A DNA stretch of 56,342 nt, the filler included, from Bradymonadales bacterium (GTDB lineage: Bacteria; Bdellovibrionota; UBA2394), in NCBI GenBank assembly GCA_007693605.1. It is 4 parts of 4 records of this genome, joined end to end, with 100 filler letters (N's around TTAATTAATTAA, not from the genome) between each part and the next. Parts side by side here need not be neighbours in the genome. Positions count along the whole stretch, not along the records: positions 29,277 to 43,054 come from REDG01000016.1; 3 more parts are not named here. The stretch is one strand, 5' to 3'. Below the pieces are notes generated by a model, which saw only the letters and a program-made list of their open reading frames with translations, had not been told where the DNA came from and ran no database searches. The position numbers and the translations under genes are program-made. Shown here piece after piece: positions 33,538 through 47,049 of this stretch; the stretch's first letter is position 1; the number at the start of each line of letters is the position of its first letter.

Positions 33538-34827
33538 TCAATCCAGACTCCTTAGACTACTTCGAAGCCCAGAAATGATAACCCCAATCAGATCACCCGA
33601 AACTGCAGAGGGGTAGCTTTGGAAAGATTTTTCCAATGACTTCGCCTTCTCACTGACTTCTTGGAGCATCTCTTCAAAAGCTTCTTTAGAAACATCAGAC
33701 GCCTTGGCGGATTCATACCAATGGCGGTTTTGAATTTCCGACAATCGGTAGTGCCTGGGAGACCCGACTCCCATAGCGAGTTTTGCTTCTTTTTTTTCGA
33801 TCTGGCGGGCCTGAAGAGCAGGGTGGAGGCTTAAGATGTCGTACAAAGGTGTTAGGCGAAAGCCTGACTTTGAAGGGAAAACACTGAAATTTTTCGCATG
33901 CCCATCTGTTCCGGCAAGCAAATAGAATAGGATCTGAGCTTTGAAAAAAGTAGCTCTATCTCTGTCCCTATAGTCAGAACTGTTTAAAAAATCCATGATC
34001 TGCTTGATCCCGACCCCGCCTCGATTTTCATACTTCTTTGTATAGGGAATGCCTAGGGCTTGGCAGAGATCTTCTTGAGGAAGTCTTGTCAGACGGGAGC
34101 CAATCCACTTTCTATCAAATCTTTCAACGACCAAACATCGAATGTCTTTGAAGTCCAAAACTTGCGACTGGGGCACCTCAAAACCAAAGTGTTTCGCAAT
34201 TTGAAGACATACCCACTCATTCTCTGCGCTCATGGTCATATCAATTCGATTCGGCAATATGCCCAAGCGAGGCTTCAAGATATGTGTTGAGGGTGTAACT
34301 CCCAAGGGACGACACCATCGATTATTCAAATAAAGAAGAGCGGTCTTTTCTTGAGCTCCTGCGATAGAAATTCGAAACTCATCACTCTCATTCATACCCA
34401 GGGGGGAGATCGAGAGATTCGAAAGAATTCTATGAATCTCCTCTTCATCAAGTGTCTTGAACTTAAGGCCTTCGGCCTTTGGAATCTCTTCATCTTTGGG
34501 GATAAACTGCAATGCCCCGACACAATCTCTTCCCATCAGGCTTAGAAGCTCGACAGGATCGGTGCTGTTTGCTTGAAACTTCTGCGCGAGTCTTTCGAGG
34601 ATGACTTCATTGTCAGGAAGTAGATTGCCAAAAAAAGAGCTGACAATGGCTCCCGTATAAGGCGCGTCCTTAATGGGCATGCTCAGCGATATTGGCAATG
34701 ACTTTCCGGCGATCCAGGCAGGCGTGTACTCAAAGCTCAATCTTCCTGAGCTCCCACGAACTAAAGTGCCGACCCTCTCGCCATTAAGAAGAACACTCAA
34801 ATGAATGCTGAGGGATCGCTTCGCCAT
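33538..34827 (-). CDS. hipA: HipA Ser/Thr kinase toxin
   Basis: LPISLSMP, NLLPD, GRDCVGAL, SIAGAQEK, ERFDR, DGHAKNFS, LTPLYD. Confidence 0.95.
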   Translation of the reverse strand: MAKRSLSIHLSVLLNGERVGTLVRGSSGRLSFEYTPAWIAGKSLPISLSMPIKDAPYTGAIVSSFFGNLLPDNEVILERLAQKFQANSTDPVELLSLMGRDCVGALQFIPKDEEIPKAEGLKFKTLDEEEIHRILSNLSISPLGMNESDEFRISIAGAQEKTALLYLNNRWCRPLGVTPSTHILKPRLGILPNRIDMTMSAENEWVCLQIAKHFGFEVPQSQVLDFKDIRCLVVERFDRKWIGSRLTRLPQEDLCQALGIPYTKKYENRGGVGIKQIMDFLNSSDYRDRDRATFFKAQILFYLLAGTDGHAKNFSVFPSKSGFRLTPLYDILSLHPALQARQIEKKEAKLAMGVGSPRHYRLSEIQNRHWYESAKASDVSKEAFEEMLQEVSEKAKSLEKSFQSYPSAVSGDLIGVIISGLRSSLRSLD

Positions 34828-35078
34828 TAGGTTTCTGGATTGCCTTTCGTTCTGGAGCGAATCACTAACTCAAGATCTAAGCCCGCCAAGAGTTTAAACA
34901 TTGTGGCCAGACGCGTTTTTTCGGCACCCCCTTCCACTTGAGAAATCGTGGGTTGTTTTACGCCTGATCTCTTGCTGAGCTCAACCTGCGGCCATTTCTG
35001 CTCGCTTCGAAATCGCTGAATGGCGGCGCCAAGTTGCTTCGCATTTCTAATAATGACTTTGGTTTTAGTCGGCTTCAT
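34827..35078 (-). CDS. hipB: HipB Xre-HTH antitoxin
   Basis: HTH QVELS..SGVKQPTISQVE; coupled to hipA. Confidence 0.9.
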   Translation of the reverse strand: MKPTKTKVIIRNAKQLGAAIQRFRSEQKWPQVELSKRSGVKQPTISQVEGGAEKTRLATMFKLLAGLDLELVIRSRTKGNPET

Positions 35079-35484: not shown

Positions 35485-36282
35485 ATGAAAGCATTTACTG
35501 GAATCATTTCAACAGGCCTACTAAGCCTAACTTTTGCAACTCAAATCTTTGCTGAGGACGAAATCTTTGCTGAGGACGAAATCCTTGCTAAGGACAGTGA
35601 CCTTGCTGTGCTCCTTAAAATTTTGGGAAGGGAGAATATAAATCGCCTTAAGCGACCAGAGCCCCTCATTAGTGAGCTTAGTGAGCTTGCAGAAGAGTTG
35701 AGGAGAACAGGGTATGCCATGCATAGGTATGAATGGCGTGAAGATTCATACTCTGTTAGATTTCTTCAGGCCCCTCGGATACCATGGCAGGTAGAGGAAG
35801 TGTTGAAACGAGATCGAGCAGGACTCCTAAAGCGTCTACCAGATTCGCCTGAAGTTGTTGCCTTCCGCTGGGTTGCCCGTAGGATGTGGTCTACCAAAGA
35901 GGGCTTGTCAGCTGATCCGGGTGAGCTTTTTTTCAAGAATCTTGAAGCCGCAGTGACGGATCAGACGCTTAATCCAAAGGCAAGAGCGACTGTCGTTAAG
36001 ATCCTTAAGGAACTTTTCCCGGAAGAGGTAGAGGAATCTGGCTTCAGGGGAGTCATCGCACCTACAGAGGACGGCATGCTCGATGTTTCCGAAGCCGTAA
36101 TTGAATTGATTGAAGGCGCCTCTGCGGGAAACATTGTGAATGTGACCGTCATCCATAAACATGGAAGTTCACAGGATAAACATGGAAGTTCACAGACTGC
36201 GACTTTTGTGGTCGGCCCCAAATCCAACACAGGGGAAGCAGACGATTTTTACGACCCCGCGCCAAAGAAACAACAGAGATAG
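35485..36282 (+). CDS. Hypothetical secreted protein with short internal duplications
   Basis: Signal peptide; IFAEDE x2 and KHGSSQ x2; SD GGAG. Confidence 0.75.
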   Translation: MKAFTGIISTGLLSLTFATQIFAEDEIFAEDEILAKDSDLAVLLKILGRENINRLKRPEPLISELSELAEELRRTGYAMHRYEWREDSYSVRFLQAPRIPWQVEEVLKRDRAGLLKRLPDSPEVVAFRWVARRMWSTKEGLSADPGELFFKNLEAAVTDQTLNPKARATVVKILKELFPEEVEESGFRGVIAPTEDGMLDVSEAVIELIEGASAGNIVNVTVIHKHGSSQDKHGSSQTATFVVGPKSNTGEADDFYDPAPKKQQR

Positions 36283-36369: not shown

Positions 36370-36398
36370 GGGTCGGGAGACGGAAGTGCCAGACTAGC
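36370..36398. repeat. Dispersed repeat, family A, copy 3 (inverted)
   Basis: GGGTCGGGAGACGGAAGTGCCAGACTAGC. Confidence 0.9.
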
Positions 36399-36438
36399 GC
36401 AGGCTGCCAGAGCAGGTAGGCCTTGGCGGTTCATGGGA

Positions 36439-36707
36439 AATTGCTCGGCCCGATCGAGGGCCGGTTTATTTATCCAGGGGCGTCTACCAATTCCGCCTGG
36501 TCTTTGCGAGTGAGCTGTATTATTCAATCCCCCTGTAGATTCCGCGATCTACTGAGTGCTCAGTTGGCGGAATTGCTCGGCCGGATCGAGGGCCGGTTTA
36601 TTTATCCAGGGGCGTCTACCAATTCCGCCTGGTCTTTGCGAGTGAGCTGTATTATTCAGTTTCCCTGTAGATTCCGCGATCTACTGAGTGCTCAGTTGGC
36701 GGAATTG
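36439..36707 (+). repeat. 2 x 132-bp tandem repeat with sense and antisense tRNA-Leu segments
   Basis: Units start at 36444 and 36576; near identical; the last unit runs into the tRNA. Confidence 0.92.
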
Positions 36708-36774
36708 GTAGACGCGCTAGATTCAGGTTCTAGTGGGGAAACCCGTGGTGGTTCGAGTCCACTACTGAGCACCA
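36690..36774 (+). tRNA. tRNA-Leu(CAG)
   Basis: Acceptor GCTCAGT/ACTGAGC, anticodon arm CTAGA-TTCAGGT-TCTAG, long variable arm, GTTCGA T-loop, encoded CCA. Confidence 0.97.
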
Positions 36775-43154: not shown

Positions 43155-44326
<1,172 letters not shown>

Positions 44327-44479
44327 ATAAAGTAGCTCAGGTTGTTCACCTCAGCTCTTCAGTTAAATTACTGATGCATTGATTGAATTGAAAATTCCAA
44401 GAAACTGCATAAATGCAGATTTCTCGGCACTTGAGTCAAAACTTTAGACTCTTATTATACGCTCTATCACCTCTTCAAA

Positions 44480-44491
44480 TGTCAAAGAACA
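44480..44491 (-). promoter_or_regulatory. rrn boxA antitermination element
   Basis: Minus strand TGTTCTTTGACA. Confidence 0.75.
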
Positions 44492-44856
44492 CTTCACTCG
44501 CGTTGTTTTGTCACAATGCCGAATGGGAATAGTATGCTTCTACCCAAAACTGAAATCGAAAGGCAACGACGAAAATGAAAATTTTCTGAAATATTTTCAG
44601 GCCCTAGAAAACCCTCCGGAAGGCCTCACTCAAGGACCACATCGAGGGCCTTGATTTCTTGCATTTTGCCACCTACCAGAGTTCCGGACGGAGGCAATTT
44701 TGGGGAGTGGCGATCAACACCAAATAGTTTCAACCAGAGAAGGCCTGGCTCGGCGGATTCGATAGGCCCGCAAATCCTAAAGAGCGGAATGGACAAAATT
44801 TGTCATAAATGCGGGCTTGTTGGCGCCTAAGCCCCGAATTTTACTAGAAACTAGAG

Positions 44857-44872
44857 TGGCTTAGGATTTGCT
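44857..44872 (+). promoter_or_regulatory. Putative sigma54 promoter
   Basis: TGGCTTAGGATTTGCT (GG-N10-GC) upstream of 44911. Confidence 0.5.
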
Positions 44873-44910
44873 CTTTGAAGGACTAACAACGAGTTAAGGA
44901 GTATGGAGCA

Positions 44911-45492
44911 ATGAAATTTTTGATTTTGACCGTCACCAGTCTAATTGCACTAGGTATCGGCGAAGCGGACGCCAGAACGATTAACAAGGGCGACTCTTCG
45001 CTTTTGAGTCAAAGTAACGGGGGAGACCTGAGTGCTTTACCAGGGCCAGCAGAGTTTCAGAGCTGTAGATTGAGGGCAGCTGAGTCAATCCATGAATACT
45101 CACAGTCAAATGATCCTGATCAACTCCTTGAGTTTATAAGTGCAGTGGCAGACGGCCACTGCTCCGGGAGTCTAAACTGCCAGGAACTAATAAACGATTA
45201 CCTCAGCCTAAGACGCAACTGCTCTCGACACTCGAGAGGCATGCAGCACAACAATTATCAAGAGGGTGACTGCGAAACCTGCTCTTCTAAGGCGAATCAA
45301 ATCAATCAATCTTGTGGGGGCTTCGGCGGCGTGAATACGAACTGTGAAGACTGCCTACAGCACGATAGTGCCTGCCACACATGCGACAACAATGCAGTCT
45401 GCGAGTCGCAATGTGAGTATGAACAAACAGAGACCGCCTATCAGGAATGTATCTTAAGCTGTAATGCTCAATTCCCCTGCTTCAGGCAGTAG
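44911..45492 (+). CDS. Secreted Cys-rich protein (16 Cys)
   Basis: Signal peptide ending ADA; SD AAGGAG; CxxC and CxxxC pairs. Confidence 0.8.
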   Translation: MKFLILTVTSLIALGIGEADARTINKGDSSLLSQSNGGDLSALPGPAEFQSCRLRAAESIHEYSQSNDPDQLLEFISAVADGHCSGSLNCQELINDYLSLRRNCSRHSRGMQHNNYQEGDCETCSSKANQINQSCGGFGGVNTNCEDCLQHDSACHTCDNNAVCESQCEYEQTETAYQECILSCNAQFPCFRQ

Positions 45493-45512
45493 AACCGCTC
45501 GTAGTCAGAAAA

Positions 45513-45588
45513 TGGTGGACCCAGACGGGATCGAACCGACGACCTCCTGAATGCAAATCAGGCGCTCTCCCAGCTGAGCTATGGGCCC
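45513..45588 (-). tRNA. tRNA-Ala(TGC)
   Basis: GGGCCCATAGCTCAGCTGGGAGAGCGCCTGATTTGCATTCAGGAGGTCGTCGGTTCGATCCCGTCTGGGTCCACCA; G3:U70 pair. Confidence 0.97.
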
Positions 45589-45875
45589 ACTTCGTTCGGG
45601 CCCACAACTCAGCTGAACGCGCCTTCTGTTCAGGCGCTCCTCTTTCAAGTTCGCCTCCGGCTCAACCAGCTGCCCTATGGGCCCACTTCGTTCGGGCCCA
45701 CAACTCAGCTGAACGCGCCTTCTGTTCAGGCGCTCCTCTTTCAAGTTCGCCTCCGGCTCAACCAGCTGCCCTATGGGCCCACTTCGTTCGGGCCCACAAC
45801 TCAGCTGAACGCGCCTTCTGTTCAGGCGCTCCTCTTTCAAGTTCGCCTCCGGCTCAACCAGCTGCCCTATGGGCC
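45589..45875 (-). repeat. 3 x 96-bp tandem repeat with sense and antisense tRNA-Ala segments
   Basis: Identical units at 45589, 45685, 45781 directly abutting the tRNA 5' end. Confidence 0.95.
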
Positions 45876-45987
45876 TTCCTTACTCACTTTCAAACAAATG
45901 AGTCGTCACCAAACTATTCCGAGCTTGGCTTCCTTGCCAAGTCAAATCCCTCTCAATTCAGAAGCTTTGCCAAGGGCCTAAAAAAAT

Positions 45988-47049
45988 CTACCTAGAATCG
46001 GCTGAAATGAGGGCCGTCAAATGGAGTCGCGCTTCCTCATATAGAATCCGCACCCTTTCTTTGGTCAGGGAGTGCCCGCCATTCACTCTCAAGAAGTCTT
46101 CGTGTTGTCCGATTTGTTTAAAGGTAAGACCAGGACCACCCTCCAAACCATGATACAAGACGAGGATGGTTCGATGCCGTTCATCCTTCAAACGAGGCAC
46201 GGCCCTCTTTAGTGCCCGCAAGGAATCTTCATCTTCGACACGGGCCGAAGGATCTTTCCCCCCACTGGGCAGAGAAAGCTCGCCACCTGCACCAAAAGCT
46301 CCTACCAGCTTCCTGCGCCTTGCGTCCTCGTTTAGCCAATCCGCGTATTCTCGATTCAAAACACGAGTCAAAGGGGTCGAAAGCTGCAGCTTCCTACTTG
46401 GCTGGAAAGTCTCAACGACTTTGACAAGAAGGATATTGCCGAGCCCCACAAGTTCATCAAAATAATAGCCCTTTTCCGGCAGGTTTTTCGAAACAAGGAA
46501 CTGGCGAGCTATCATCTTTACAAGACTAAGATTCTTCTCAACCAAAAGGTTTCGAATTTCCAGCCTCCCTTTCATTTTTTCTTGAAGCAGGCCTTCGTCG
46601 GCTTCTGACAGACCCCAGTCCTGCCAGCCCAAGGGTCCAAGGGAGTCGAGATACAGGAAAAGCCAGTACGAAGCCGTGCGATTGAACGATTCGTCCTCTT
46701 TGAAGAAATCATCCCAACTCTTCAGAATCAAACCAGTTTGCCTCGTCTTTTGAGCATTGATTCTCCCAAAAAATGCTTCGAGCGCTGCCTCCGGCACTCG
46801 CTCTTTTAAAAACTCGACAAGCTCTCTCTCTAAGCCCTCCATGGCGAAAAACACATCCGCTCTCTGCTCATGACTTAGATCTCCAAAGTTATCTGCCTTC
46901 CTAAGAGAGGCTAAGCTTTCGAGCCTCTCTCCTGCCAGAAGAATCTGGTCGGCGCAGCCGAAAAGCGGACGACCAATAGCCCCGGCATCAGTAAACCAAA
47001 GGCCAATGATCCCTATCAAGAAAACCAGTCGAGTACGAGAACCCCACAT
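45988..47049 (-). CDS. Sigma70-like protein (regions 2 and 4) with N-terminal signal peptide
   Basis: RNLLVEKNLSLVKMIARQF..DELVGLGNILLVKVVETF; LTFKQIGQ..LTKERVR; N-terminus MWGSRTRLVFLIGIIGLWFTDAGA. Confidence 0.75.
   Translation of the reverse strand: MWGSRTRLVFLIGIIGLWFTDAGAIGRPLFGCADQILLAGERLESLASLRKADNFGDLSHEQRADVFFAMEGLERELVEFLKERVPEAALEAFFGRINAQKTRQTGLILKSWDDFFKEDESFNRTASYWLFLYLDSLGPLGWQDWGLSEADEGLLQEKMKGRLEIRNLLVEKNLSLVKMIARQFLVSKNLPEKGYYFDELVGLGNILLVKVVETFQPSRKLQLSTPLTRVLNREYADWLNEDARRRKLVGAFGAGGELSLPSGGKDPSARVEDEDSLRALKRAVPRLKDERHRTILVLYHGLEGGPGLTFKQIGQHEDFLRVNGGHSLTKERVRILYEEARLHLTALISADSR

Follow-up and report, generated by a model that had tools for sequence, protein, structure and literature searches.

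Why should a tRNA gene be preceded by tandem repeats that carry a perfect antisense copy of its own D-arm? The question is raised by the tRNA-Leu(CAG) gene of a 2.19-Mb genome in 79 contigs (G000 in the following), which lies in the stretch of 56,342 nucleotides analysed here (the window), four contigs of this genome joined via N linkers. The array and its tRNA gene are located entirely within one of these contigs (C58), between an orphan ORF and ribD. The original prediction described tandem 132-bp units, each with a GC hairpin, an exact reverse complement of tRNA nt 9-26 and a GTAGAT/ATCTAC hairpin, as well as a sense copy of tRNA nt 1-18, and all of these are present. There are two units (36439-36570 and 36571-36702), which are 97% identical and differ at four positions; the GTAGAT/ATCTAC hairpins and the sense copy can be read directly in the sequence. 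The features of the locus are as follows:

36371..36438, plus strand: REP (RAYT family) with REP tail, unrelated to the Leu cassette; truncates the tRNA copy of the first unit
36439..36443, plus strand: remnant of the left tRNA copy of unit 1, nt 14-18, AATTG
36445..36464, plus strand: GC hairpin of unit 1 (scaffold hairpin P2), with an atypical 6-nt loop and a T-rich linker after it, terminator-like
36480..36497, plus strand: antisense to tRNA-Leu nt 9-26, unit 1
36498..36557, plus strand: spacer of unit 1 with the GTAGAT/ATCTAC hairpin (36535-36552), unique to this locus within the genome
36558..36575, plus strand: perfect copy of tRNA-Leu nt 1-18, ending at G18
36577..36596, plus strand: GC hairpin of unit 2 (P2)
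36612..36629, plus strand: antisense to tRNA-Leu nt 9-26, unit 2
36630..36689, plus strand: spacer of unit 2, 60 nt, with the second GTAGAT/ATCTAC hairpin (36667-36684)
36690..36774, plus strand: tRNA-Leu(CAG), intact

The antisense match at this locus is far above chance. On its strand, the antisense 18-mer occurs twice in the 2.19-Mb genome, both times here, and an antisense score of at least 16 is reached by about 1 in 10,000 random 150-nt windows. Pieces of the Leu unit were found only at this locus in a genome-wide search. The complementarity had also been proposed to extend into the anticodon and acceptor stems. Here, ATCCAG does match in five of six bases, but one base out of register, and TGAGC is indeed present, but the pairing of spacers with the 5' strand of the acceptor stem (P0) is not cognate-specific over 73-74 cassettes of the kind described below (p 0.14-0.95). 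The decayed sense copy thought to begin at 36423 is probably a misreading, as the sequence is explained by a 28-bp REP (36371-36398) that has 42 copies in the genome, together with its tail (at 36418-36438, 17 of 21 bases are the same as in the tail that follows another REP copy); only the AATTG at 36439-36443 remains of the copy.

The regions of the spacer hairpins (36535-36557 and 36667-36689) contain GTAGA, corresponding to tRNA nt 19-23, and a 7-nt antisense to nt 10-16, and the final 8-10 nt of each unit are similar to the tRNA's own 3' acceptor strand. The hairpin region is possibly a scrambled older cassette; GTAGA, the short antisense and the acceptor-like end are no general trait across cassettes. 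In the surroundings, a hipB-hipA-type toxin-antitoxin pair lies at 33538-35078, 1.3 kb upstream of the array, and an orphan ORF containing short tandem repeats at 35485-36282.

The arrangement is not confined to leucine. On a separate contig of the window, three units precede a tRNA-Ala(TGC) gene:

45589..45875, minus strand: tRNA-Ala(TGC) array of three 96-bp units with a C-GGA-G hairpin
45598-45624, 45694-45720 and 45790-45816, minus strand: Ala antisense arms, complementary to the tRNA's own 5' half
45513..45588, minus strand: tRNA-Ala(TGC), intact

The read depth given for the repeat contig of this array, possibly from the source run, is 25.8, against 10-12 in the flanks. Throughout G000, 9 of the 30 tRNAs with enough flanking sequence scored at least 14/18 for a cognate antisense D-arm, compared to 0.27% of random windows, and counting the Arg(TCG) array, located at the end of a contig, as well as a decayed copy at Thr brings the tally to 11 isotypes.

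Read on the tRNA-sense strand, these cassettes share one order: a copy of tRNA nt 1-18, ending at G18/G19; a T; the 6-bp hairpin P2; a purine-rich linker, 11-12 nt long in 30 of 40 measured cassettes; a sense copy of nt 21 to 25-28; a 3-4-nt loop; the antisense of nt 27 to 10-15; and a spacer of 18-66 nt that leads to the intact tRNA gene. Units are 90-145 bp long and contain no ORF. The only part common to different sites is the hairpin-linker scaffold of ~30 nt, the arms being the adjacent gene's own sequence. Accordingly, when arms were ranked against tRNAs, the neighbouring tRNA came first or tied for first in 21 of 28 tested cassettes, and the others preferred a near-identical D-arm. All six pairs of P2 show two-sided changes, and its pairing is at 99.3%; the further helices P3 and the outer P1 are paired at 92% and 67%, respectively. 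The cassette alone is predicted to fold into a three-way junction, in which the bases opposite the D-loop GG are the least paired.

The left tRNA copy occupies the former start of the gene, either after the -10 box or 6 nt past the previous tRNA, and it is the copy that decays. In 53 entries it never out-pairs the real 5' end with the 3' strand of the acceptor stem, and we rejected a self-splicing tRNA intron with the left copy as exon 1 on these two grounds. The direct repeat begins at or just before nt +1 and extends 0-15 nt beyond, with an identity of 0.45-0.72 at positions -1 to -7 versus 0.21-0.35 (29 single units); this extension fits target duplication and array turnover equally well. 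The motif TT(G/T)ACA, chosen after inspection, occurs in the last 22 nt of 9 of 52 cassette spacers and of 1 of 201 cassette-free tRNA flanks.

Within this scheme the Leu cassette of the window is atypical. Its loop is larger and its linker T-rich, triloop, purine linker and sense arm are missing, and a scan with our covariance model (R1) did not recover it, while the Leu cassettes of relatives have a normal scaffold. The two units are best explained as a worn, atypical copy that was duplicated recently. An assembly artefact as their source is ruled out by the independent genomes in which cassettes occur, by the covariation and by the four differences between the units.

A covariance model built from 26 cassettes had matches in 13 of the 14 genomes of the family (71 matches, training set counted in) and in none of 137 other sampled genomes of the phylum. 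We inspected 31 new matches, 25 of which lie 5-61 nt before the cognate tRNA and 6 at contig ends. Cassettes were found at 23 isotypes in the family in total and at 1-14 per genome, with sets that differ even between congeners; among the best 30 or so tRNA loci in each of six relatives, 9/30, 4/31, 2/28, 2/28, 1/32 and 0/30 scored positive. Some cassettes are located within rRNA and tRNA operons. Two distant genomes carry cassettes at 1 of 34 and 2 of 35 tRNAs, and exact-pattern scans of GTDB returned 19 loci, all with the cassette layout, some of them from duplicate family genomes and not all independent. Twelve of these loci are from Saccharibacteria or their kin and the rest from Peribacteria, Oscillospiraceae, Christensenellaceae, Bacteriovoracaceae and 'Deltaproteobacteria'; further pattern scans found cassettes in Flavobacteriales, and Bacillota are among the groups that have them.

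In searches with other patterns, the scaffold alone gave 33 matches (16 cassettes, 16 chance minus-strand tRNAs and one palindromic chimera) and the Leu pattern five (three cassettes, two head-to-head pairs), and Leu-type cassettes are present in Saccharibacteria. Of 25 matches in a metagenome scan, at least 11 were cassette loci and 8 were tRNAs in a head-to-head or inverted arrangement, the remainder being removed as duplicates; two viral-contig scans gave no cassettes. The form of the scaffold is lineage-specific: one form is found in the family of G000, another is common to the Met and Val cassettes of one Saccharibacteria genome. There were no orphan or ORF-bearing copies among the inspected loci and matches, and neither the 31 model matches nor 16 cassette loci inspected with flanks of 2.5 kb included a longer, gene-bearing form. 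Of 518 apex-matching hairpins in G000, four have both target copies, every one at tRNAs. The many decayed copies and the cassette-free relatives argue against an essential function.

Does the cassette act as DNA or as RNA? The P2 loops are of a DNA type and carry the signature of mini-hairpins. Of 53 entries, 47 could be parsed (three were decayed or misparsed and three had no hairpin), and their loops comprise 24 C-NNA-G triloops (15 C-GNA-G and 9 other), 8 C-GNAB-G, one GNRA and no UNCG, counts that are not statistically independent because the cassettes are kin. In controls, C-NNA-G loops were found in 0 of 108 terminator-like hairpins and in 31 of 1500 random hairpins. Loops of the AAA and GNAB types are stable as DNA, too. 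GNA mini-hairpins are described as far more stable in DNA than in RNA and as occurring at ssDNA priming and N4 promoter sites (PMC13037366).

Strand polarity is seen in mirror cassettes, which lie behind tRNA genes and show the cassette order when read on the template strand. They were found in 7 of 386 tRNA entries, all in the family of G000, to which the Ser(TGA) mirror cassette of G000 is additional. Their order is a copy of the gene end up to a G, a T, a 6-bp hairpin, an 11-nt linker, the sense arm, the antisense, a spacer and the gene, and the loop, again on the template strand, is C-NNA-G in seven of eight. Mirror cassettes break in or beside the T-loop, 5' cassettes at G18/G19 of the D-loop. 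A search of five genomes with the scaffold pattern yielded 14 matches (4 with the reversed pattern as control), all of them at tRNA ends, ten at the 5' and four at the 3' end. In G011, one and the same 11-nt linker is found in an Arg cassette at the 5' end and in a Leu array of three units at the 3' end, and the two units of one Arg array are unlike. As the same scaffold stands on the template strand at 3' ends, its polarity is set by the element and not by the transcript; and because the targets in the D-loop have no sequence in common with those in the T-loop, we infer that the arms must be written from the target. The wobble direction showed no G-U bias to the transcribed strand (9 G-T versus 11 A-C; the top strand folded better in 25 of 50), and no tie to the replication strand was seen in local skews, which are noisy (five positive, three negative, two neutral). 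Two metatranscriptomes mapped on 43155-46400 of the window gave zero reads in the organism-specific 23S bins, for which reason the empty leader bins are uninformative, also with respect to the anti-tRNA small RNAs considered in the original prediction.

In our view the cassette is probably a gene-less mobile micro-element that acts as folded ssDNA, inheriting its scaffold of ~30 nt and having its arms written from each target. A tiny element that targets tRNA 5' ends was one of the options of the original prediction and is the one favoured by the evidence, but T-loop mirrors and the template-strand scaffold show that it is not restricted to 5' ends, and neither is it restricted to leucine. From the layout, cognacy, covariation, strand polarity and distribution of cassettes we infer folding in vivo, mobility, arm copying and an enzyme, which may act together in the following way. 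As ssDNA, the scaffold strand would form a three-way junction in which the target is rebuilt as a duplex to either side of the break, with 3-4 unpaired antisense bases serving as a toehold. The mini-hairpin would be bound by an enzyme provided in trans, or by one of the host, which would join the scaffold to a loop G of the tRNA gene, after which fold-back copying of the target would write the arms (forward, inverted, forward) and restore the displaced gene end. The tRNA would survive, with RNase P trimming off the cassette. Arrays could arise via repeated insertion at the regenerated site or via slippage between direct repeats, and copies would afterwards persist vertically, decay and get lost. 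More tentatively, the cassette might be a self-programming DNA parasite of ~30 inherited bases, copying its guide arms from whichever tRNA loop it has entered, on either strand, duplicating and restoring the end of the gene, and served by a postulated ssDNA enzyme that reads the mini-hairpin instead of a target sequence. If true, cassettes would represent a site-specific mobile element of a new class and offer a way to insertion programmed by base pairing; if the arms are written from the target, they imply a new target-recognition logic with an undiscovered enzyme behind it.

Part of the inheritance of cassettes is vertical. The variable stem tracks isotype (p 0.028) and not genome (p 0.14; two misparsed rows left out), and spacers are most similar at the same isotype. 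A genome effect (p 0.001) stems mainly from the composition-sensitive linker, and recent hopping is weakly supported.

Searches for the mobilising enzyme gave no candidate among the families tested one at a time (RT, Y1/RAYT, IS110, tyrosine recombinases, GIY-YIG), and no neighbouring gene recurs beside cassettes in 315 loci. An RT is found in 5 of the 14 family genomes, which are 76-98% complete, and is absent from G000. Y1/RAYT proteins are found in ten, among them the cassette-free G008; four genomes with cassettes lack them. The RAYT (REP-associated tyrosine transposase) of G000, downstream of tRNA-Gln, is flanked by two inverted copies of its own 28-bp REP, a repeat other than the cassette (C78:26350-27160), and RAYT does not co-occur with cassettes. 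IS110 is present in 2 of the 14; in G000, an IS110-family transposase is located at C64:40595-40816, 500 bp behind tRNA-His. The one GIY-YIG match in G000 is a 616-aa frame that we took as UvrC, and no GIY-YIG gene recurs beside cassettes. Tyrosine recombinases show no pattern of co-occurrence with cassettes. Most family genomes, including cassette-free G008, have a third Xer-like tyrosine recombinase, which was not found in G000; those in G003:C15, G008:C1 and G011:C142 (L505, L508, L512) score below the XerC, XerD and IntI cut-offs.

The original prediction also offered a cis anti-tRNA leader, which is physically plausible. As a switch in the RNA, the three-way junction of the leader would hide the antisense; on failure, the D-arm would be invaded, the left copy would take the acceptor strand and RNase P would be blocked. 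In equilibrium folds the antisense takes the D-arm of the real tRNA in 48 of 50 precursors, the predicted probability of the native acceptor stem drops from 0.94 to 0.07, and the swapped fold is favoured by a median of 10.3 kcal/mol, and by 20.8 kcal/mol at the Leu locus of the window. Cassettes inside rRNA and tRNA operons, an RNase P RNA in 13 of 14 family genomes, inheritance at some isotypes and the terminator-like hairpins of the window are also in accord with a switch, and a synthetic RNase P riboswitch, in which leader structure governs 5' processing, demonstrates the principle, but is engineered (PMC7897497). Left unexplained, however, are the mirror cassettes, which lie behind the gene and have the same scaffold on its template strand, the DNA-type loops and the isotype sets, which are patchy and vary even among congeners, and the absence of a G-U bias to the transcribed strand also speaks against a switch, which we regard as unlikely. 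An RNA-level effect, even if incidental, is likely nonetheless, since the precursor RNA prefers the swapped fold in these predictions; tRNA output would depend on the leader folding first and on a fast RNase P cut. RNA could alternatively be the intermediate of a parasite: the leader, released by RNase P, would dock with its antisense arm on a tRNA, and reverse transcription with template jumps would return it to tRNA genes. The duplicated part does start at or just before nt +1, and template jumping would yield cognate ends; yet no RT was found in G000 and eight other family genomes (the genomes being 76-98% complete), mirror cassettes would require an antisense transcript, and the mini-hairpin loops would lie on the wrong cDNA strand, which makes this route quite improbable.

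Two further readings dispense with a mobile element. The cassette might be a DNA structure made by the host, or a repair scar, with a host enzyme nicking the stem-loops of tRNA genes and repair capturing a fixed primer-like hairpin, or it might be kept as a decoy or backup of gene ends. It encodes no gene, persists vertically for long, has a direct repeat extending 0-15 nt past nt +1 and, judging from the 0 of 137 other genomes of the phylum, a scaffold confined to one family, as if fitted to a host protein; we nevertheless find this unlikely, as no donor copy of the scaffold was found away from tRNA ends (14 of 14 pattern matches are at tRNA ends, as are the 4 of 518 hairpins) and many copies are decayed and relatives cassette-free. 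Neutral debris of slippage and template switching at tRNA palindromes would be expected to leave arrays of near-identical units, such as the 97% alike Leu units, and inverted copies from snap-back. It would not account for the recurrence, at unrelated loops and on both strands, of a scaffold that is not tRNA sequence and has fixed stem and linker lengths and full covariation, and is strongly disfavoured by the covariation and the recurrence of the scaffold on both strands; we consider it very improbable.

Other inserts were observed at tRNA and rRNA genes. Gene-less inserts of 110-190 nt, bracketed by 23-32-nt copies of tRNA 3' ends, have no antisense arm and different hairpin scaffolds, and form at least two families. 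In G000 they are located behind tRNA-Ser(GGA), Ser(GCT), Arg(ACG), Arg(TCT), Phe and Gly(GCC), and similar inserts occur in G011, G004, G002 and G010. An rRNA operon appears to be split or padded (window 44330-45513; G000 C28:23200-24078); a tRNA-Ile with a cassette comes after the 16S gene, and ~1.1 kb separates tRNA-Ala from the 23S gene. In Saccharibacteria, a longer hairpin-rich insert (L499:566-726) follows a 14-nt copy of the 5' end of tRNA-Val(TAC) and adjoins a Leu cassette. A perfect tRNA-half fold-back at a contig end (L157) is probably an assembly chimera.

Among integration targets, tRNA genes have been studied best, yet our literature searches found no account of the cassettes, which occur in several phyla and at as many as a third or more of the tRNA genes of some genomes. 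The perfect anti-tRNA sequence inside tRNA precursors makes the competition between co-transcriptional folding and the speed of RNase P directly testable, and cassettes explain contig breaks and missing tRNAs in assemblies of carrier lineages (6 of the 31 inspected matches are at contig ends).

We compared the cassette with known systems of similar appearance. Its hairpin with tail has a likeness to type I-C/I-E CRISPR repeats and its junction to hammerhead and pistol ribozymes, but the cores mismatch; a simple repeat scan of G000 found no CRISPR-like array, and no Rfam leader, riboswitch or small ribozyme matched the cassettes of the window or six loci at E up to 1. Integron attC sites are gene-free sites formed by a folded single strand, with a strand-specific purine-rich unpaired part, conserved core boxes and extrahelical bases, and build arrays by serial insertion. 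The cassette resembles them as a gene-free, putatively folded site with a purine-rich unpaired part and arrays; unlike attC, it has no conserved core boxes and no extrahelical bases between antisense arm and tRNA, the arm being a continuous perfect complement of isotype-specific sequence. None of five recombinases scanned for an integron integrase exceeded the IntI cut-off. REP/RAYT and IS200/IS605 peel-and-paste elements use small ssDNA hairpins, choose their target by base pairing and, in contrast to the cassette, produce no long target duplication. Small hairpins and a target choice via base pairing would be shared by the cassette, but in place of dispersed copies of a single sequence that flank a RAYT, the pieces of the Leu unit are local only.

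In archaeal split tRNAs, complementary leaders flank the tRNA pieces and pair with each other at a BHB motif (PMC3293823), whereas the partner of the cassette arm is the body of the tRNA, and such arms are also present behind genes, on the opposite strand. Islands that target tRNA genes have, like cassettes, a restored tRNA and a displaced end fragment as direct repeat, and form tandem arrays (PMC4383910). Fragments of 5' ends are described for 159 of the 3919 islands of Islander (PMC4383910) and for the tRNA-Thr of Caldiarchaeum (PMC3293823), and the crossover subsites listed for islands are the anticodon loop, the T loop and the junction, the D-loop not being among them (PMC4383910). Unlike islands, which are >2 kb long and contain a tyrosine integrase gene, cassettes have ~100 bp and no integrase and include an inverted target copy within the unit; they break in the D-loop at 5' ends and, as mirror cassettes, in or beside the T-loop.

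In the CTX-phage attP(+) and in IMEX, as in the proposed cassette fold, a single strand folds between inverted target copies into a duplex attachment site of ~100-150 nt, and the element encodes no integrase and integrates in tandem (PMC4246890). Of the systems compared, this is the one that the proposed action of the cassette would resemble most. The corresponding fold-back of the cassette is a predicted three-way junction with covarying helices, which, with its mini-hairpin, takes the place of the central region. The cassette differs from CTX and IMEX in that it targets the D- or T-loop of tRNA genes and not dif, has neither XerC/XerD boxes nor phage genes, and has arms that differ per site, all sites being tRNA loops and all arms tRNA sequence. 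The literature searched, mostly open-access and at abstract level, contained no description of it, and overall the cassette resembles mobile DNA of an undescribed kind more than it does a leucine tRNA switch.
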